A DNA stretch of 60,202 bases from an uncultured Bacilli bacterium. Lineage in GTDB: Bacteria > Bacillota_I > Bacilli_A > RF39 > UBA660. Position numbers and translations under genes: made by a program. How positions within the stretch are numbered: the stretch's first letter is position 1; every line of letters begins with the position of its first letter. The stretch covers positions 1-60,202 of the forward strand of contig CALVSQ010000002.1 in assembly GCA_944359085.1 (NCBI GenBank), in the 5' to 3' direction. Shown here piece by piece: positions 34,227 to 60,202 of the stretch. Below the pieces are notes generated by a model. That model was not told where the DNA came from, searched no databases, and saw nothing but the letters and a program-made list of their open reading frames with translations.

Positions 34227-34772
34227 TTATAGTTTAAAATCATTTGTAATATTGTCGTTCATATTTTTACCATCATAATAAGTTTTCTCTTTATTTTTTG
34301 ATAAAATAGCTACAATATTACTTGGAAATTTTCTAACTAATTTGTTATAATCAGTAATTATGTCGTTATAATATTTTCTTAATGCTGTTATTTCGTGTTC
34401 GCTTTCATTTAAGGAAATATCTATTTTTAATAAGGCATCACTTTCATTTAATTCTGGATAGTTTTCTTTATAATAATTAAATTCATTAATTGCTTCATAT
34501 AATTGTCGATCTAAATCAAAATTAGATAATTTTCTACTTCTTAATTTTACTATTAATCCTAAAACATCTTCTTCTGTATTTATATTACCTTTAATTATGT
34601 TTATTGATTTATTTAATAAGTCAAATCTTTTTCTTAAAGTAGTATCTATATTAGCTTCTACTTCATTTATTCTAATAATGAAGCTTTGAAATTTATTATA
34701 AGTATTAACATACCATACTAAAATTAAACAAATAATGATAATAATTATTAATGTTATAAAAAATGCACTCAT
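34227..34772 (-). CDS. lemA: LemA family protein
   Basis: N-terminal TM segment, YN.F......V.EA...ID..L.RR.DL and a YYN....YN....FPSN pattern. Confidence 0.8.
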   Translation of the reverse strand: MSAFFITLIIIIIICLILVWYVNTYNKFQSFIIRINEVEANIDTTLRKRFDLLNKSINIIKGNINTEEDVLGLIVKLRSRKLSNFDLDRQLYEAINEFNYYKENYPELNESDALLKIDISLNESEHEITALRKYYNDIITDYNKLVRKFPSNIVAILSKNKEKTYYDGKNMNDNITNDFKL

Positions 34773-54442: not shown

Positions 54443-55522
54443 ATGAAAAAATTGATAACTAGTGAATCAGTAACAGAAGGTCACCCAGATAAAATATGTG
54501 ACAAAATAAGTGATAAAATATTAGATATGGCTTTAATGGAAGATATTAATAGTCATATGGCTGTAGAAGCAACAATCAAAGATAATTTTATTTTAATATA
54601 TGGTGAAGCTAATACAAAAGCAAAATTAGATTATGAAGAGTTAGCTAAAGATGTACTTAAAGATATTGGATATAATGATGATTTTGAAGTATTGGTTAAA
54701 GTTAGTGGCCAATCACAAGAAATTAATAATGCTGTTTCTAAAAAGAAAATATGTGCAGGAGATCAAGGAATAATGTTTGGTTATGCAACTAATGAAACAA
54801 AGGAATTTATGCCTTTACCTATTTTACTTGCTAACAAAATAACAAAACAACTAGCTTTAGTTAGAAAGAAAGATAAAAATTCTATTTTAATGCCAGATGG
54901 TAAAGCTCAAGTTACAGTAGAATATGTAGATAATATTCCTAAAAGAATTGATACAATAATTGTTTCATCTCAACATAAAAAAGATGTTACTCAAGAAGAA
55001 TTAAAAAAATATATAAAAGAAAATGTAATCGATGAAGTTATACCTAAAGAATTAATGATAGATACTAAAATTTTAATTAATACAAGTGGTTCTTTTGTAA
55101 TTGGTGGACCATTTGGTGATAGTGGTACAACTGGAAGAAAAATAGTGGTAGATACATATGGTGGCGTTGGTAAAGTAGGTGGTGGTTGCTTTAGTAGTAA
55201 AGATCCATCTAAAGTAGATAGAAGTGCTGCTTATTATGCAAGATATGTAGCTAAAAATATTGTTTATCATAATTTATGTGATAGATGTGAAGTAGAAGTA
55301 TCTTATGCTATTGGATTAGAACAACCTATTAGTGTTAATATTGAAACATTTAATACTAATAAAGTAAGTATGGAAGAAATAAACGATTATGTTAAAAATA
55401 ATTTTGATTTTTCAGTTGATAACATTATAAAAGAATTAAATTTATTAAGACCAATTTATTATGATATAGCAAGTTATGGTCATTTTGGTTATGATAATTT
55501 ACCATGGGAACAAATAAAGTAA
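54443..55522 (+). CDS. metK: S-adenosylmethionine synthetase
   Basis: SESVTEGHPDKICD, GAGDQGIMFGYA, GGPFGDSGTTGRKIVVDTYGG and KDPSKVDRSAAY motifs. Confidence 0.95.
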   Translation: MKKLITSESVTEGHPDKICDKISDKILDMALMEDINSHMAVEATIKDNFILIYGEANTKAKLDYEELAKDVLKDIGYNDDFEVLVKVSGQSQEINNAVSKKKICAGDQGIMFGYATNETKEFMPLPILLANKITKQLALVRKKDKNSILMPDGKAQVTVEYVDNIPKRIDTIIVSSQHKKDVTQEELKKYIKENVIDEVIPKELMIDTKILINTSGSFVIGGPFGDSGTTGRKIVVDTYGGVGKVGGGCFSSKDPSKVDRSAAYYARYVAKNIVYHNLCDRCEVEVSYAIGLEQPISVNIETFNTNKVSMEEINDYVKNNFDFSVDNIIKELNLLRPIYYDIASYGHFGYDNLPWEQIK

Positions 55523-55618
55523 TTTATTTGTTTTTTAATACTAAAAATAATATTAACGAACAAAAATCTTTATATTTTTCATTTTCTAAAATAAGTCCAA
55601 ATTAGGTCAAAATTATTC

Positions 55619-55646
55619 TTGATTTAAATTTGTCAAGTGATATAAT
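55619..55646 (+). promoter_or_regulatory. candidate promoter upstream of the fibre-like/RHS gene pair
   Basis: TTGATT-16 nt-TATAAT with an extended TGa. It lies ~160 nt upstream of ATG 55805. Confidence 0.35.
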
Positions 55647-55804
55647 ATGGTAAAGTCAAACAATGTAAGAAAAGCGGCATATGTCGTTTTTTTTGTTTGA
55701 TTAAAGGAGATGATTTTATTGATTGTATCATAATATAGTAATTAAATAATTTTAATTGGACTATTATATAGTATTTTTTTGAAAGGAAAGAGAGGAAAAT
55801 AAAT

Positions 55805-56503
55805 ATGGAAGAAAATGAACTTTATTTTAAAGATGCGTTTTCACAATCTGAAGGGAAAACAAATCTTACAATTAACAATTTAACTGCAGCTTGTATAAGC
55901 TCTAGTAATAACAAATTTAGTTTAGATAGTGAAGGAAATTTAGTTGTTAATACAATTCAAGCAACAGGAAATACAAGCACAGGAACTGGATATGATATAG
56001 ACAAGGTATATCCTATAGGCGCAATATATATGAGCGTAAATAGTACAAATCCTAATATTTTATTCGGAGGAACATGGGAACGAATAATGGACAAGTTTCT
56101 ATTGTGTTCAGGTGATACTTATGCTAATGCATCAACGGGAGGTAATGCAACAACAACTTTAACAGTGGACAATTTACCATCACATACACACACAGGATCT
56201 ACTTCTTCTGATGGATCACATACACATACAGGAACTACATCTACAAATGGCAATCATATTCACAAATTATATTATAGAAATGTTTATAGTAGTGGTGATA
56301 CATATAATGCTATTTGTCGTCCAACTGCAGGAACAGGAATAAATACATATATGGATGAAGCTGGATCACATACGCATAGTTTTACAACTGGTTCAAATGG
56401 AACTCATACTCATAGTTTTACAACAAGTTCAACTGGTAGTGGTGCTGAATTTAATAATATGCCACCTTATTTAGCTGTATATGTATGGAAACGTGTATCA
56501 TAG
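55805..56503 (+). CDS. phage tail-fibre/baseplate-like protein with five HxH motifs
   Basis: VYPIGAIYMSVNSTNPNILFGGTWERI.DKFLL..G...G..GGNATTTLTVDNLPSHTH, then repeated SHTHTG, SHTHTG, NHIHK, SHTHSF and THTHSF, and a C-terminal NNMPPYLAVYVWKRV. This is the pattern I associate with Gram-positive prophage baseplate or tail-collar proteins. Confidence 0.65.
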   Translation: MEENELYFKDAFSQSEGKTNLTINNLTAACISSSNNKFSLDSEGNLVVNTIQATGNTSTGTGYDIDKVYPIGAIYMSVNSTNPNILFGGTWERIMDKFLLCSGDTYANASTGGNATTTLTVDNLPSHTHTGSTSSDGSHTHTGTTSTNGNHIHKLYYRNVYSSGDTYNAICRPTAGTGINTYMDEAGSHTHSFTTGSNGTHTHSFTTSSTGSGAEFNNMPPYLAVYVWKRVS

Positions 56504-56519
56504 ATTAAAAGGTGATTTT

Positions 56520-59500
56520 ATGAAAAGAGAACTAAAGAATTTAAGAAAAAGAAATGAAAAACACTTTTTAAATGAAGATGGAACTATTGAAGCTATTTTG
56601 TATAATGATAATGTACATTATTTAAAAGATGGTGTATATGAAGAGATTAATAATACATTAATAGAAGAAAATAATCGTTATCATATTGTTGGTAATGCTT
56701 TTAATTTATCTTTTTCAAAGCAAAATGATGAGAACTTATTAGAATTTATTAAAAATGGACATTATTTTAAAATGAGCTTAAAGGATTCTTTTAAAGTTTC
56801 TAATAAAGAGTTAAAAAAAGATAACAAAATAAGAAAAAAAGGAAGTATTAGTTATAATGAAGTATTTGAAAACACAGATTTAAGTTATCAAATATTACCT
56901 CAAAAAGTAAAAGAAACAATTGTTTTCAAAGATAAAAATTCTATCAAAGACAAAATTGTGTTTGATATAAAAACAGATTTGGAATTGACCTTAGAAAATA
57001 ATAAAATTGTATCAGAAGATTTTACTATTTTAGATTCATTTATGATTGATAGTAATAATCAAATAAATAAAGAAATTTATTATATTTTAAATAAAGTTCC
57101 TAATGGTTATGAACTTATCTTGGTTTTAGATAAAGTATGGTTGGAATGCAATGATAGAAAATATCCTGTTTATGTAGATCCAACTATAACTACAGAAGAA
57201 TCAAATGATTGTCAAGATACATTTATTAATAGTAAATATCCTAATACTAATTATGGTGATAGTGAAATTTTAAAAACTAGCATTTTAACAGAAGATGAAA
57301 TATGTCGTTCTTTAGTAAAATTTGGTTTGCCAACAATTGCTACTGGTAGTAATGTTGTAAATGCTAAATTGTATGTCCATGAAGTCGATTATGGATATTG
57401 GGGACAATATAATGATTCAATTATAACAATACATGAAATAACAGCAAACTGGAATGAAAATACAGCGACTTGGAATAATATGCATGATAAATATGCTAAA
57501 AGAGTAGAAGATTATAAATATAGTTCTGATAAAATTTATATTAATGCTCTTTTTAAACCTAATTATGTTAATTTTGATATTACCAATTTAGTTAAAAGAT
57601 GGTATGCAGGAACTCCAAATTATGGTTTAATGATAAAAACTTATAAAGAACAATTACTTGATAACCCTTTTTTTCACGATTTTTGGTCAAGAGAATCTAT
57701 TGTTGACTCTAAAAATCCTAAACCAATATTAGCTGTAACATATAGAAATAAAAATGGCTTAGAAAATTATTTGACATATCAAAGTCAAACCTTGTCTAAT
57801 GGAACTATTTATGAGAACAATTATAATGGAAATGTAACGTTTGATTTTCACTTAGGAAATACAGTTGGTGGAGATTTACCAGTATCTTTAAATTTATTTT
57901 ATAATACTAATGATGTTATTTTAAATAAAAATTATGGAATTGGCTTAGGTATGAAATTCAATATGTATCAAATTATACAACAATCAGATTTAACAGAAGA
58001 AGATGTAAATTTATATGAATATATTGATGAAGATGGGACACTTCATTATTTTATTCCCAAAAGAGATGGTGATAATATTGTGGCTAATACATTTGAAAGT
58101 GAAGATAATCCATCTTTAAAATTGATAATTTCTGAAAATTTGTGTGAATTAAAAGATAAATATGGAAATTGTAAAACATTTACTAAAAATGGTAATGTTT
58201 TTTATTTGACAAAAATTAAAAATTTAAAAAATAAAGAAATTAATATATCTTACAATTCTTCAAAAATTTCTAGTATAACCGATGCAGCAGGAAAACAAAT
58301 AACAATAACATATAGTGATAATAGTGTATCTATAAATAGCCCTGTCAATAATACTGTTTTAACATTAACTAATGGCAAATTAACTCGTATAGAAGATAAT
58401 TTTGGCTCACTTTATATTACCTATAACAATAATAGTATAATTAATCTTATTACAGATATAAATGGGAAAAAAATAGGATTTGAATATTATGATGTAATTC
58501 CATATAGAGTCAAAAAAGTTATTGAATATGGAATTAACAATAATATTGGTAAAACATTAAATTTTAATTATGGCTTTGAAGTTACTCAAATAGATGATAA
58601 TAAAGGAATGCGTAATACTTATACGTTTAATGAGTTTGGTAATACTATATCTATAAGTAATTTAGGTATTGGACAAAACATTAATGATTGTTATGGTACG
58701 GAAATGTCATATGGTTCTACCGGTCAACATATAAATAAGTTGTTATCAAAAAGTGAAAAAGTAAAGTCTGTCAATAACTTAATTTGGAATTCTGGGTTTG
58801 AAAAAGAATATAATATTTTTCATGGCGATGATAATTTAGAAGTTAGTATAACAAACGAATTTAGTTTAGATGGTAATAGATGTTTGAAATTTTCTGGGTA
58901 TGGTAATTCATATGCAAGTATCCCAGTGATAGATGCAGGAAGCTATACATTTAGCTTTTATAGCAAATCATATTCAGAATATAGTGTTTGGTTAGTATCA
59001 GGAACGAATTCGTCTCGTATTTTGGATGTAAAACCAAGTATTGAATTTGAAAGGCATGAATTGACTATTGATGATGTACAAGCTTTATCTGATGTTGAAA
59101 TAATTATTGTTATTCCAGGAGGATTAATAAGTAATGTATATTGGGATAATATACAATTAGAAAAGGGTAAAGTTGCAAATTATTATAATTTAATTGATAA
59201 CAACAATTTTTCTTATAATTTAGCAGGTTGGATTTATGATAATCCTAGCAATAATAATACTGAATTTACTCCTAGTGATATAATTACTTTTAAAAGTATT
59301 GGTGATAGAACTGATGGAATTATAACATATGAAGATGGAAGTAAAGCATTAAAAGTAGTTTGTGATCCTGATGAATCAAGACATATTAGTAGATATATCG
59401 ATATCAAAGGTTCTGAAGGAGACATTATACATTTTTCTTTTTGGTATAAAAATTCAGGATTGTCTAAAATGTTTACATATCCAGAAGGCCGTCATAATAC

Positions 59501-60202
59501 TGTTCAATTTATACTTTGGCCTGCTAACGAAGAAGATGCTGGAGATATGTTTTATTATGCAGATTTAAATTCTAACAGTGATGAATGGCAATATTATTCT
59601 GCTACATTTGATGCACCATATGAGTTTAATAAATTTAGAATGTCTATTGTATCTTTTAATTCAGCTAATGAAATATATGTGACAAATTTTAATTTGTTTA
59701 AAGTAAATGGAATATTAGGCAATTCTTATGATGAAAATGGTAATATTATTGCAACTCATGATAAAAATAATAATATAAATACATTTAAATATGATAAAAA
59801 TAACGAATTAATTAAAATGACTAATCCAATAGGAGATAGTTTGAATTATGAATATGATAATGAAATAACTGATAGGATTTTATCAGGAATATCTCCCACT
59901 GGAATAACAAATAGTATAAAGTATGACGATAATAGTAATCCGATTTTTACTAGAATAGAAAATAAAACTAAATTAAATCTAGAAAATGGTAATTATTATA
60001 TTAGGTCAAAAGGAACAAATAAATATTTAAAAATCGATAGTTTAAACAAAAAGTTAATATTAAAAGAAGATTCTTGTAGTCATGCTAAATGGTCAGTTAC
60101 AGTAAATGATGATAATACTTTAACAATTACACCATTGATAGAAAATATTTGTTACATTAATACTTTTAATATTAGTGATTTAATTTTTACTTTTGAAAGT
60201 CA
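56520..60202 (+). CDS. DNRLRE-domain / YD-repeat (RHS-type) giant protein, 3' end outside window
   Basis: Absent from the ORF track because the frame stays open to the window end. GGTGA RBS upstream. The N-terminus is RNEKHFLNEDGT. The DNRLRE-like domain reads DTFINSKYPNTNYG...CRSLVKFGLP...AKLYVHE...ITANWNENTATWNN. Two CBM4/9-like jelly-roll modules follow (NLIWNSGFE..., NLIDNNNFS..GW), then YD repeats (FKYDKNNELIKMTNPIGDSLNYEYDNE) and a ricin-like stretch at the end. Confidence 0.75.
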   Translation, partial: MKRELKNLRKRNEKHFLNEDGTIEAILYNDNVHYLKDGVYEEINNTLIEENNRYHIVGNAFNLSFSKQNDENLLEFIKNGHYFKMSLKDSFKVSNKELKKDNKIRKKGSISYNEVFENTDLSYQILPQKVKETIVFKDKNSIKDKIVFDIKTDLELTLENNKIVSEDFTILDSFMIDSNNQINKEIYYILNKVPNGYELILVLDKVWLECNDRKYPVYVDPTITTEESNDCQDTFINSKYPNTNYGDSEILKTSILTEDEICRSLVKFGLPTIATGSNVVNAKLYVHEVDYGYWGQYNDSIITIHEITANWNENTATWNNMHDKYAKRVEDYKYSSDKIYINALFKPNYVNFDITNLVKRWYAGTPNYGLMIKTYKEQLLDNPFFHDFWSRESIVDSKNPKPILAVTYRNKNGLENYLTYQSQTLSNGTIYENNYNGNVTFDFHLGNTVGGDLPVSLNLFYNTNDVILNKNYGIGLGMKFNMYQIIQQSDLTEEDVNLYEYIDEDGTLHYFIPKRDGDNIVANTFESEDNPSLKLIISENLCELKDKYGNCKTFTKNGNVFYLTKIKNLKNKEINISYNSSKISSITDAAGKQITITYSDNSVSINSPVNNTVLTLTNGKLTRIEDNFGSLYITYNNNSIINLITDINGKKIGFEYYDVIPYRVKKVIEYGINNNIGKTLNFNYGFEVTQIDDNKGMRNTYTFNEFGNTISISNLGIGQNINDCYGTEMSYGSTGQHINKLLSKSEKVKSVNNLIWNSGFEKEYNIFHGDDNLEVSITNEFSLDGNRCLKFSGYGNSYASIPVIDAGSYTFSFYSKSYSEYSVWLVSGTNSSRILDVKPSIEFERHELTIDDVQALSDVEIIIVIPGGLISNVYWDNIQLEKGKVANYYNLIDNNNFSYNLAGWIYDNPSNNNTEFTPSDIITFKSIGDRTDGIITYEDGSKALKVVCDPDESRHISRYIDIKGSEGDIIHFSFWYKNSGLSKMFTYPEGRHNTVQFILWPANEEDAGDMFYYADLNSNSDEWQYYSATFDAPYEFNKFRMSIVSFNSANEIYVTNFNLFKVNGILGNSYDENGNIIATHDKNNNINTFKYDKNNELIKMTNPIGDSLNYEYDNEITDRILSGISPTGITNSIKYDDNSNPIFTRIENKTKLNLENGNYYIRSKGTNKYLKIDSLNKKLILKEDSCSHAKWSVTVNDDNTLTITPLIENICYINTFNISDLIFTFES

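Follow-up and report, generated by a model that had tools for sequence, protein, structure and literature searches.

A phage-fibre-like protein encoded beside a signal-less RHS toxin homologue in uncultured gut Bacilli

A 232-aa protein that resembles the stem and head of phage receptor-binding fibres is encoded directly upstream of an RHS gene in an uncultured bacterium of the class Bacilli, and the same pair of genes recurs, co-oriented and tightly spaced, in related genomes. RHS proteins with such a neighbour lack the predicted Sec signal peptide that most of their close paralogues keep, and about half of the partnered loci have lysis genes within 10 kb. Our preferred reading, to which we give roughly even odds as a whole, sees in the fibre-like protein a dedicated partner for a separate clade of RHS polymorphic toxins in gut Bacilli with small, low-GC genomes. 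The DNA analyzed here, referred to as the window, is a stretch of 60,202 nucleotides that makes up an entire contig of a 68%-complete genome; the RHS gene at its end is therefore cut by the contig end and not broken.

Domain architecture of the two proteins

The fibre-like gene (55805..56503, plus strand) encodes 232 aa, including all of the peptides that a preliminary description of this DNA had quoted from it. Its product consists of a stem (approximately residues 11–52), a linker, and a gp10_C-type head (residues 66–232), and contains no hydrophobic N-terminus. The tail-collar or baseplate-like core first suggested for it was borne out by profile searches: Pfam Gp10_C (PF21939) matches residues 66–231 (E = 3e-21; 77.3 bits, cut-off 27), the top match in a PDB profile search is the C-terminal domain of T4 gp10 (2FKK; E = 2e-9), and 15 of the 18 PHROGs families found at E ≤ 0.1 belong to the tail category; an NCBIfam search returned no family. 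Residues 20–125 share 38–42% identity with annotated antireceptors of Lactobacillus delbrueckii phages (Ld3, c5, and LL-Ku) and also match the short tail fibre gp12 of KVP40. The protein collection contains about 4,700 relatives of similar length, and some database relatives are labelled “microcystin-dependent protein”. Homologues that share as little as 39% identity with the window protein have equal length, full-length coverage, and intact frames. Structure prediction with AF2 yielded an unusable monomer from 20 sequences (pLDDT 42.5) and a model of moderate quality from 73 (pLDDT 68.4). A Foldseek comparison of the fibre model found nothing in the PDB at E ≤ 0.001, with T4 gp10 ranked first at E = 0.1, and VIA-align reached Z ≤ 3.4 with an rmsd of 5.2 over 46 aligned residues. 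Because the models are poor to moderate and the fold matches insignificant, homology rests on sequence, which identifies the protein as putatively derived from a phage receptor-binding fibre similar to T4 gp10/gp12, of which it would retain stem and head.

Five HxH motifs had been reported in this protein, and all five are present, starting at residues 127, 139, 151, 189, and 201. Together they hold every histidine of the protein (10/10), and five motifs were reached in none of 10,000 shuffles (shuffle mean 0.39). The motif, a feature of metal-binding trimeric fibre tips of the T4 gp12/gp37 type, is similar to the metal site in the short fibre gp12. Two of the five units are encoded by a tandem duplication of 36 nt (56362..56436, plus strand; 2.1 copies, 84% matches, score 108). 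H127 and H129 are at least 90% conserved across 73 homologues, and individual family members carry from one to five motifs. In the same 73 sequences, the majority-residue fraction is 0.73 in the stem, 0.75 in the head core, and 0.81 in the C-terminal strand; it falls to 0.30 in the HxH-rich insert of the head (residues 130–210), a hypervariable region that is 31–86 aa long.

The RHS reading frame begins with an ATG at 56520, 17 nt past the last base of the fibre stop codon, and its product starts with MKRELKNLRK. All of its features lie on the plus strand. Alignment places the conserved RHS N-terminal domain at residues 1–231 (56520..57212), right after the initiator methionine and without a signal peptide. 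It is followed by a carbohydrate-binding-type DNRLRE/CBM96 domain (residues 232–407, 57213..57740; NCBIfam NF033679, E = 9.5e-32; Pfam CBM96, E = 1e-16), a region with weak similarity to a domain of phage head spike fibres (residues 939–1058, 59334..59693; NCBIfam NF048003, E = 5.5e-5, 23.8 bits, cut-off 36), and the first YD/RHS repeats (residues 1070–1110, 59727..59849; TIGR01643, E = 9.6e-5; Pfam RHS_repeat, E = 1.4e-6). The contig ends within an insert of about 125 aa (first part at 59922..60200) that has weak similarity to beta-trefoil, ricin-type lectins; RicinB_lectin_2 matches this insert with E = 0.023 in the window and E = 5.7e-4 at another locus (L016), both under the cut-off. Complete RHS homologues reach E = 4.5e-27 with RHS_repeat, and 10 of 48 C-termini match four Pfam families, Tox-WTIP, Ntox44, GIY-YIG, and DUF6973, three of which are toxin or nuclease domains. 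With its repeats, the variable toxin C-termini of its relatives, and a probable C-terminus next to an immunity-like gene on another contig of the genome (C54, below), the downstream gene qualifies as a predicted RHS/YD polymorphic toxin. Pfam scans of the window protein and three complete homologues found no PAAR/VgrG, LXG/WXG, or SpvB/TcdB domains, distant versions of which could escape such scans. Searching the genome with Pfam RHS_repeat gave zero matches, the window's own copy being missed too, and a custom RHS HMM found the window copy alone.

Conservation and modular evolution of the gene pair

The fibre-like gene lies, as first described, between metK (TIGR01034, E = 7.5e-145) and a YD-repeat gene that starts 17 nt downstream with its own ribosome-binding site. 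metK is itself preceded by miaB, RNase J, ylmC, and sigG. The ribosome-binding site, read directly from the sequence (AAAGGTGA, 56508..56515, plus strand), sits within the 16-nt intergenic gap and places an AGGTGA in front of the RHS ATG. No terminator-like site occurs in 55300..56800, and so there is none between the two genes. About 160 nt 5' of the fibre-like gene is a promoter-like site (55619..55646, plus strand) composed of TTGATT, a 16-nt spacer, and a TG-extended TATAAT; it matches 10 of 12 consensus positions in addition to the extended −10 TG, which is weak evidence alone because the scan found 13 such sites where 12.2 are expected from shuffled sequence. An RNA-library contig from a relative of about 93% identity starts at 55669, a weak hint in favor of this promoter, and spans both genes; as metatranscriptome contig data with possible DNA contamination of the library, it falls short of proof of a single transcript.

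Housekeeping genes occupy the 55 kb upstream. At E ≤ 1e-8, the 48 ORFs of at least 100 aa in this stretch include no match to PHROGs of terminases, portals, capsids, tails, tape measures, or integrases, in line with the earlier remark that capsid, portal, terminase, tape-measure, integrase, and lysis genes are missing nearby; the sole structural PHROG match upstream is an isolated “virion structural protein” at 34230..34772. The housekeeping flanks, these 48 ORFs without a phage-core match, and the absence of the pair from the best 80 viral contigs do not fit a virion tail fibre, which would be encoded among phage structural and packaging genes.

To place the pair in a wider context, 80 related loci in species-representative genomes were surveyed, of which 68 encode a stem and 12 a head only; judged by record titles, none of the 68 comes from a cultured carrier. 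A co-oriented RHS gene of about 2000 aa lies directly downstream (same strand, start at −60 to +1500 nt) in 65 of the 68 stem-bearing loci. In two of the three unpaired loci the contig ends in less than 110 nt, and the third has an RHS gene 4.2 kb upstream. RHS genes are absent from all 12 head-only loci and from beside the head domain in the best 80 IMG/VR loci, where the domain sits within longer proteins (median 459 aa). The chromosomal context varies within the genus, which points to mobility: the pair follows metK in two genomes (G000 and G013) and a spoIVA fragment in another (G015), and is found elsewhere in G018 and G022. Comparison across genomes, which measure about 1.1–1.4 Mb in carriers, shows the predicted genes to be a conserved, co-oriented, and tightly spaced pair. 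Some loci contain two different fibre genes in tandem, and others a gene of 111–135 aa (cluster c9) between the fibre and RHS genes. Neither Pfam nor PHROGs matches the c9 representative or its copies in G018 and G022, and PHROGs does not match the N-terminal extension of about 190 aa found in long fibre forms. RHS domains were absent from the best 120 longer relatives of the fibre protein (407–2000 aa) in a search for fibre–RHS fusions that spans proteins of up to 2000 aa.

The preliminary description had read the gene as a domesticated fibre in an operon with the RHS gene and not as a leftover, and had called for a neighbourhood survey; the recurrence of the RHS adjacency, its varied contexts, and its absence from the best 80 viral contigs strongly support that reading. 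Neither of the outcomes set against it there, homologues confined to intact prophages with an RHS adjacency unique to this genome, or a decaying prophage, was found. It is extremely improbable that the gene is the remnant of a decaying prophage that came to lie next to an RHS gene by chance. The head domain is common to phage fibres, and the window ends inside the RHS gene with the downstream side beyond view, but the tight spacing of the genes, the housekeeping genes upstream, and the intact frames of full-length, distant homologues speak against a remnant, which the neighbourhood survey contradicts.

Within the pair, stem identity tracks the identity of the RHS N-domain in pairwise comparisons (Spearman 0.47). 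The corresponding values are 0.13 for the head core, 0.06 for the variable region, and 0.08 for the C-terminal strand, and these non-tracking parts of the head lie nearer to the RHS gene on the DNA than the stem does. By these measures, the fibre protein evolves in a modular fashion, with a stem that co-varies with the RHS N-domain and a head that is exchanged independently; loci L044 and L035, for example, have a stem in common but different heads.

Signal peptide loss and neighbouring lysis genes

The RHS protein had initially been likened to WapA. As a toxin carrier it fits this description; the Sec signal peptide of WapA, on the other hand, is missing throughout the partnered proteins. A hydrophobic segment, scored as a 12-aa window with KD ≥ 2.0 within the first 90 aa, is present in none of 58 partnered RHS proteins, compared with 25% of all ORFs longer than 150 aa. 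In a class-wide sample of 37 RHS loci that share the N-domain, the sole signal-less protein belongs to the window's own family and has a fibre gene 10 nt upstream. The other 36 paralogues carry a presequence of 40–110 aa before the N-domain, which is hydrophobic in 32 and ambiguous in 4, and none of these 36 has a fibre gene within 3 kb. The beta-trefoil-like insert is present in all 49 partnered RHS proteins versus 1 of 28 with a signal peptide. The comparison shows that partnered RHS proteins lost the predicted Sec signal peptide kept by most close paralogues and gained a beta-trefoil-like insert.

The exact coincidence of fibre presence with signal loss also fits a different role, to which we assign a minor share of the probability: the fibre protein could be an export or assembly adaptor that chaperones or mounts the signal-less RHS protein and is not a target-recognition subunit, much as EagR/VgrG serve the Rhs proteins of the T6SS or small partner proteins serve the LXG toxins of the T7SS. 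The co-variation of the stem with the RHS N-domain would suit such an adaptor. The C-terminal domain of T4 gp10 acts within the baseplate as a connector and does not bind receptors, so the fibre head could equally be an adaptor, and targeting could be left to the carbohydrate-binding modules of the RHS protein itself (DNRLRE/CBM96 and the beta-trefoil-like insert). However, the distal head is hypervariable and exchanged independently of the RHS N-domain, and some loci hold different fibre genes in tandem; variable, exchanged, and tandem heads typify proteins that determine receptor specificity, not chaperones. Nor is a dedicated exporter conserved beside the pair, a C39 ABC exporter being present in three loci only.

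Further differences between the two types of loci were found among their neighbouring genes. Hydrolase genes of the M23 or GH25 type are found within 10 kb in 32/66 partnered loci versus 0/32 signal-peptide RHS loci, holin or holin-like genes show the same distribution (32/66 versus 0/32), both kinds occur together in 28/66 versus 0/32 and at least one of them in 36/66 versus 0/32, and a same-strand lysis-type gene is present within 3 kb in 32/66 versus 0/32, a comparison that is biased because the partnered loci also supplied the sequences behind the lysis-gene HMMs and for which the Fisher p of 1e-7 overstates the link because the genomes are related. No lysis genes were found near the pair in G018 (14 kb downstream) or in the stretch examined of G428. 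Overall, the comparison shows that predicted phage-type genes for holins, peptidoglycan hydrolases, and regulators often flank the partnered RHS genes. A single ancestral event may lie behind the joint occurrence of signal loss, fibre gene, insert, and lysis genes.

The window copy of the RHS gene stops at the contig end, before its C-terminus; a second contig of the same genome, C54, provides a probable C-terminus and an immunity-like gene. The RHS C-terminus on C54 is recognized by BLAST to another RHS end only, and is 37% identical to the RHS end at locus L087 (E = 4e-10). It is followed by the immunity-like gene, an activator, a TM protein, a Phage_holin_6_1 protein (E = 1.3e-16), and a GH25 muramidase (E = 1.6e-29), the activator being 79% identical to a G015 gene that follows the RHS and immunity genes there. 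We infer from this synteny, and not from the assembly, that C54 belongs with the window RHS locus.

Virion proteins are likewise signal-less and released by holin and endolysin, and the two proteins might thus be structural parts or cargo of a phage-like particle, for example, an RHS-bearing fibre module of a prophage or tailocin whose other genes lie elsewhere. In three loci (L063, L067, and L079) the pair indeed comes directly after prophage tail genes and a lysis cassette, and a PHROGs family (phrog_10385, 2333 positions) matches RHS C-terminal fragments. We nevertheless regard a particle as improbable: the best viral contigs lack an RHS gene next to the head domain, comparison of the RHS N-region with phage records produced one unverified contig, carrying a signal-peptide RHS without a fibre, and one partial hit, most loci including the window are flanked by housekeeping genes, and the genomes are small. 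Even less probable is a purely intracellular role in abortive infection or phage sensing, with the fibre as decoy or sensor and the RHS toxin killing the infected cell. Both proteins lack an export signal, and two loci (L016 and L017) have an Abi_2 gene (cluster c52) no more than 10 kb upstream, but carbohydrate-binding modules, cognate immunity genes, orphan toxin-end arrays, and polymorphic C-termini are hallmarks of interbacterial competition.

A possible lysis-released bacteriocin and its relatives

The preliminary description proposed that fibre and RHS protein may work together in targeting or adhesion, and raised a metal-lined trimeric needle as a structure to look for; the link to phage lysis cassettes changes the likely mechanism. 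We see about even odds that the fibre protein forms the trimeric subunit by which a lysis-released RHS bacteriocin finds its targets. In such a system, the fibre protein would trimerize like its phage relatives and dock on the RHS protein via its conserved stem, and the exchangeable HxH-rich head would decide which neighbouring cells get bound. The RHS N-domain may not be the docking site, because paralogues without a fibre partner share it. The complex would leave the producer not through Sec but by holin/endolysin-mediated lysis or leakage of a subpopulation, a route that can be likened to those of colicins, tailocins, Tc toxins, and large clostridial toxins. The variable C-terminal toxin would then kill the target, and the downstream immunity gene would shield kin. 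Somewhat more tentatively, the loci could define a class of phage-derived protein bacteriocins, each with a Sec-free RHS cocoon, a trimeric gp10/gp12-type fibre with a metal-stapled head, its own holin and endolysin, and a phage-type activator. If so, they would amount to a Gram-positive equivalent of tailocins and Tc toxins that lacks a tail, is widespread in uncultured gut Bacilli, and has its target range set by swapping or duplication of fibre heads.

Several known systems share parts of this arrangement. WapA of Bacillus subtilis and Streptococcus suis, the latter as described in available excerpts of PMC12704120, is likewise a giant YD/RHS protein with a DNRLRE N-terminal region, a polymorphic toxin, and a downstream immunity gene, but also carries a Sec signal peptide and repeats that anchor it to the wall. 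What sets the partnered clade apart, besides its missing signal peptide, is an upstream fibre gene, the beta-trefoil-like insert, and frequent lysis cassettes. Tc (ABC) toxins and type 10 secretion in Yersinia entomophaga combine, according to excerpts of PMC10847048, a signal-less RHS-cocoon toxin and a phage-derived holin/endolysin with release by lysis of a subpopulation and a separate receptor-binding subunit, the last two of which are likewise proposed here. In contrast to Tc toxins, the present loci have no TcA-like pentamer and no SpvB/TcB domains, the separate subunit is a small phage-fibre-type protein, the carriers are gut commensals of Gram-positive type, and the toxins look directed against bacteria. 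The PaLoc of Clostridioides difficile, as outlined in parts of PMC6200909 and PMC12485765, similarly joins big signal-less toxin genes to a phage-type regulator (the sigma factor gene tcdR), a holin (TcdE), and an endolysin-type gene (the TcdL endolysin remnant), but its toxins are glucosyltransferases and not RHS proteins, and it includes neither a fibre partner nor an immunity gene. The VgrG–PAAR–Rhs assemblies of T6SS, in which an Rhs toxin is mounted on a trimeric phage-derived protein, are similar by analogy only, since PAAR/VgrG domains and a T6SS are lacking here and the phage ancestor is a fibre or baseplate head domain and not a spike.

On the fibre side, homology to the T4 gp10/gp11/gp12 family (Gp10_C; 2FKK) and to “microcystin-dependent” or tail-collar proteins extends over nearly the whole protein, but the fibre described here is a standalone protein of about 200 aa, outside virion gene sets and fixed beside an RHS gene. 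Exchangeable receptor-binding heads are shared with the antireceptors of the L. delbrueckii phages and with tailocin fibres; antireceptors, however, are long virion proteins of phage genomes, and the fibre protein has no virion-attachment part. Available excerpts of Zhang et al (2012; PMC3482391) give “tail-fiber” only as repeats within toxin polypeptides, and a search of the accessible literature found no paper on a fibre-like partner of an RHS toxin.

Export and delivery of RHS toxins in Gram-positive bacteria are unsettled even for WapA, as the S. suis paper (PMC12704120) states, and the locus offers a natural experiment on how 230-kDa RHS toxins get out of the producer and onto targets: in one clade the RHS scaffold persists, the signal peptide has apparently been lost, and a gene for a phage fibre has been gained, in many cases along with a lysis cassette. 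Should the fibre direct the toxin to its targets, the pair would give abundant uncultured gut bacteria a strain-specific weapon of modular build, and would be a candidate scaffold for retargetable protein antimicrobials. The proposed mechanism would also extend lysis-type (“type 10”) release to antibacterial RHS toxins of Firmicutes and would give a concrete job to a large family of stand-alone Gp10_C or “microcystin-dependent” proteins. Metagenome runs of 13 studies, on chicken guts and on other gut samples, contain the window stretch itself.

The fibre gene and its chromosomal setting

The fibre-like gene (55805–56503, + strand) encodes a 232-aa protein that contains all the peptides quoted in the preliminary description. 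Residues 66–231 match Pfam Gp10_C, the C-terminal domain of baseplate protein gp10 (E=3e-21), and 15 of the 18 PHROG families matched at E≤0.1 belong to the tail category. With a 20-homologue profile, the best solved relative is the T4 gp10 C-terminal domain (2FKK; E=2e-9, profile positions 19–209). Residues 20–125 have matches in annotated Lactobacillus delbrueckii phage antireceptors and in gp12 of KVP40. The five HxH motifs noted earlier are indeed present, start at residues 127, 139, 151, 189, and 201, and contain all ten histidines of the protein; none of 10,000 shuffles of the protein reached this number. Two of them stem from a 36-nt tandem duplication in the gene. Comparison of 73 homologues revealed that the stem (residues 11–52), the core of the gp10_C-type head (66–129), and the C-terminal strand (211–232) are well conserved. 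The HxH-rich residues 130–210 are hypervariable in sequence and in length (31–86 aa), and homologues carry one to five HxH motifs.

The gene is preceded by sigG, ylmC, RNase J, miaB, and metK. As had been stated, phage genes are absent nearby: none of the 48 upstream ORFs of at least 100 aa resembles a gene for phage structure, packaging, or integration. A phage remnant, to which the tail-family matches might point, is the less likely reading in this setting. Farther upstream, a 181-aa ORF (34230–34772, − strand) matches PHROG 1383 (“virion structural protein”; E=2e-13), but it is isolated, its surroundings lacking further phage genes.

The RHS gene starts at 56520 (+ strand) behind an AGGTGA site and encodes a DNRLRE/CBM96 domain and YD/RHS repeats. 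The window spans one complete contig of a 1.13-Mb genome (24% GC, 68% complete), and the gene is therefore simply cut at residue 1227. A scan found no terminator-like site between the two genes. The stretch is present in gut metagenome runs from 13 studies, chiefly of chicken gut. In one metatranscriptome run, a 4678-nt contig from a relative (~93% identical) starts at 55669, just downstream of a promoter-like site (55619–55646), and spans the fibre gene and the junction into the RHS gene; this contig is consistent with co-transcription, without proving it. Between the promoter-like site and the fibre gene, a short GC hairpin is followed by eight T (55671–55700; AAGCGGCATATGTCGTTTTTTTT). It was not called by the terminator scan and may act as a leader element or as a weak terminator of metK.

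Recurrence of the fibre–RHS pair

Fibre homologues occur in 5 of 29 other genomes of the genus. The gene order metK–fibre–RHS is retained in G013 (fibre identity 92%), the pair follows a spoIVA fragment in G015 (89%), where the RHS protein is complete at 2017 aa, and G018 (63%) and G022 (40%) carry it in yet other chromosomal contexts. Upstream of the G015 pair (L011:5702–8451), a 527-aa large serine recombinase directly precedes a 300-aa SpoIVA from which most of the ATPase domain is missing (profile positions 196–237 alone are left), resembling a sporulation gene into which a skin-like intervening element has inserted.

A species-level pattern scan (one genome per prokaryotic species) yielded 460 relatives, of which the best 80 loci were analyzed with 10-kb flanks, using ORFs of at least 60 aa and an HMM built from four RHS proteins. 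The stem is present in 68 of these 80 loci. In 65 of the 68, an RHS gene of ~2000 aa starts on the same strand between −60 and +1500 nt downstream; two of the exceptions have <110 nt of contig left, and the third has its RHS gene 4.2 kb upstream. None of the 12 head-only loci contains an RHS gene, and five are flanked by an upstream tape-measure gene or a downstream holin gene. Likewise, the best 80 IMG/VR loci match almost only the head (residues ~65–232, ≤48% identity), in proteins of median length 459 aa, and none has an RHS neighbour. Given the recurrence of the pair and the missing RHS neighbours at viral loci, neither a confinement of homologues to intact prophages with an adjacency unique to this genome nor a decaying prophage, the two alternatives raised in the preliminary description, holds. 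It is also less likely that the fibre protein is a virion component, although its head is shared with viral proteins. By this comparison, the fibre and RHS genes are shown to form a conserved two-gene module.

Upstream of the pair, about six loci (L026, L030, L035, L038, L061, and L017) contain genes for conjugation (VirB4/TraG-like ATPase, PrgI, coupling protein, TrbL-like), and some copies may be carried on integrative conjugative elements.

Partnered RHS proteins and neighbouring lysis genes

RHS proteins encoded directly after a fibre gene begin immediately with a conserved domain (MKEIELI.KRK.REKHFL.EDGT). Within the first 90 residues, 0 of 58 show a hydrophobic window, compared with 25% of all ORFs >150 aa in the same loci. 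An N-domain profile search of 399 genomes of the phylum sample matched 36 genomes, in which 37 loci were examined. The sole signal-less RHS among them belongs to the window's own family and has a fibre gene 10 nt upstream. The other 36 carry a presequence of 40–110 aa, hydrophobic in 32 (four are unclear, partly from uncertain starts), and none has a fibre gene within 3 kb. These signal-peptide paralogues align with partnered RHS proteins almost end to end, except for a ~125-aa insert at HMM positions ~1140–1250, present in 49/49 partnered but 1/28 signal-peptide proteins. It lies inside the RHS repeat region, starts within the window at 59922–60200, and has weak beta-trefoil (ricin-lectin/fascin) similarity (RicinB_lectin_2, E=5.7e-4, below cut-off). 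The C-termini are polymorphic: 10 of 48 match Tox-WTIP, Ntox44, GIY-YIG, or DUF6973, and the remainder have no Pfam family. Comparison shows a partnered clade that has lost its signal peptide and carries a lectin-like insert. The only long match to the RHS N-region among phage records (L099; MT835902.1, “UNVERIFIED: Bacteriophage sp.”, 15.7 kb, 48% GC) is a 2178-aa signal-peptide RHS gene on an unannotated contig, in which visual inspection reveals no evident phage genes and which seems to be of bacterial, not viral, origin.

Clustering of neighbouring genes and scanning of cluster representatives identified Phage_holin_4_1 together with further small membrane proteins of holin or holin-like type, M23 peptidases with matches to PHROG endolysins, a muramidase of GH25-LysM type, a sigma-70 region-4 protein, and a phrog_248-type activator. 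They are found next to the pair, and their two typical arrangements are holin–holin–M23 followed by fibre and RHS, or fibre, RHS, and immunity followed either by small membrane proteins and M23 or by M23, holin, and activator. One set of lysis HMMs, run on both kinds of loci alike, detected an M23 or GH25 hydrolase within 10 kb in 32 of 66 partnered loci, a holin or holin-like gene in 32, and both in 28, compared with 0/32 signal-peptide loci in each case; the HMMs were built from the partnered set, and the compared genomes are related to each other. A same-strand lysis-type gene within 3 kb was found in 32/66 partnered loci, and about half, those of G018 and G428 included, have none nearby. 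Comparison shows phage-type lysis and regulator genes to be frequent beside partnered RHS genes.

Such genes also occur on C54, a separate 3492-bp contig of the same genome. It encodes, in order, an open-ended fragment that shares 37% identity with the very C-terminal end of another RHS (E=4e-10), an immunity-like membrane protein with 36% identity to a member of the G018 immunity array, a 161-aa activator (79% identical to the gene after RHS and immunity in G015), a small membrane protein, a Holin_LLH-type holin (Phage_holin_6_1, E=1.3e-16), and a GH25 muramidase (E=1.6e-29). Because the assembly contains only one RHS N-terminus, C54 most probably represents the 3′ end that the RHS locus of the window lacks, as judged from synteny rather than assembly.

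We propose that the fibre protein would trimerise, dock on the RHS protein via its stem, and select the target surface with its head, and that the complex may leave the producer through holin and hydrolase action. Such release would resemble that of colicins and tailocins and that reported for Tc toxins (PMC10847048) and large clostridial toxins (PMC6200909). Intracellular defence, with which a signal-less RHS could also be reconciled, is less likely given the carbohydrate-binding modules, immunity genes, and polymorphic C-termini. We found no description of a fibre–RHS pairing in the literature; in the relevant passages of Zhang et al, 2012 (PMC3482391), tail-fibre repeats are mentioned only inside toxin polypeptides. 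All components of the system are of known kinds, and what appears to be new is their combination and the replacement of Sec export.

Modularity and variant architectures

Stem identity tracks RHS N-domain identity (Spearman 0.47) across 63 fibre–RHS pairs, which are not independent. No such tracking is seen for the head core (0.13), variable region (0.06), or C-terminal strand (0.08), although these parts lie nearer to the RHS gene on the DNA than the stem. In some pairs, the RHS N-domain is shared to 80% and the stem to 86–98%, but the variable region to only 15–18%. This pattern is only suggestive of a conserved part for attachment linked to an exchangeable one for specificity. The main rival reading, in which the fibre protein would act as an adaptor for export or mounting and not as a targeting subunit, is compatible with the matched stem; the exchangeable region fits better with targeting.

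In six loci (L027, L038, L064, L066, L072, and L089), a single RHS gene is preceded by a tandem of two different fibre genes, and L090 contains two complete pairs 8 kb apart. About one-third of RHS-linked fibre proteins are long forms (~350–490 aa) with an extra N-terminal ~190 aa (..LFEG.NYIYTNY..; e.g., L016:9473–10050) that has no PHROG match. In six loci (e.g., L070:9654–9998), a related piece of ~110 aa is encoded by its own ORF immediately before a short form; the window has neither. Finally, cluster c9, absent from the window and without Pfam or PHROG matches, comprises conserved proteins of 111–135 aa whose coiled coil leads into an HTH-like C-terminus (..YYEI.VKG.NVTKAIDKV...STIWKNYYPKVK). 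Its genes lie between the fibre and RHS genes or adjoin the fibre gene, with copies in G018 (L012:8540–8881), G022 (L013:8462–8797), and 10 survey loci (e.g., L061:10645–11049).
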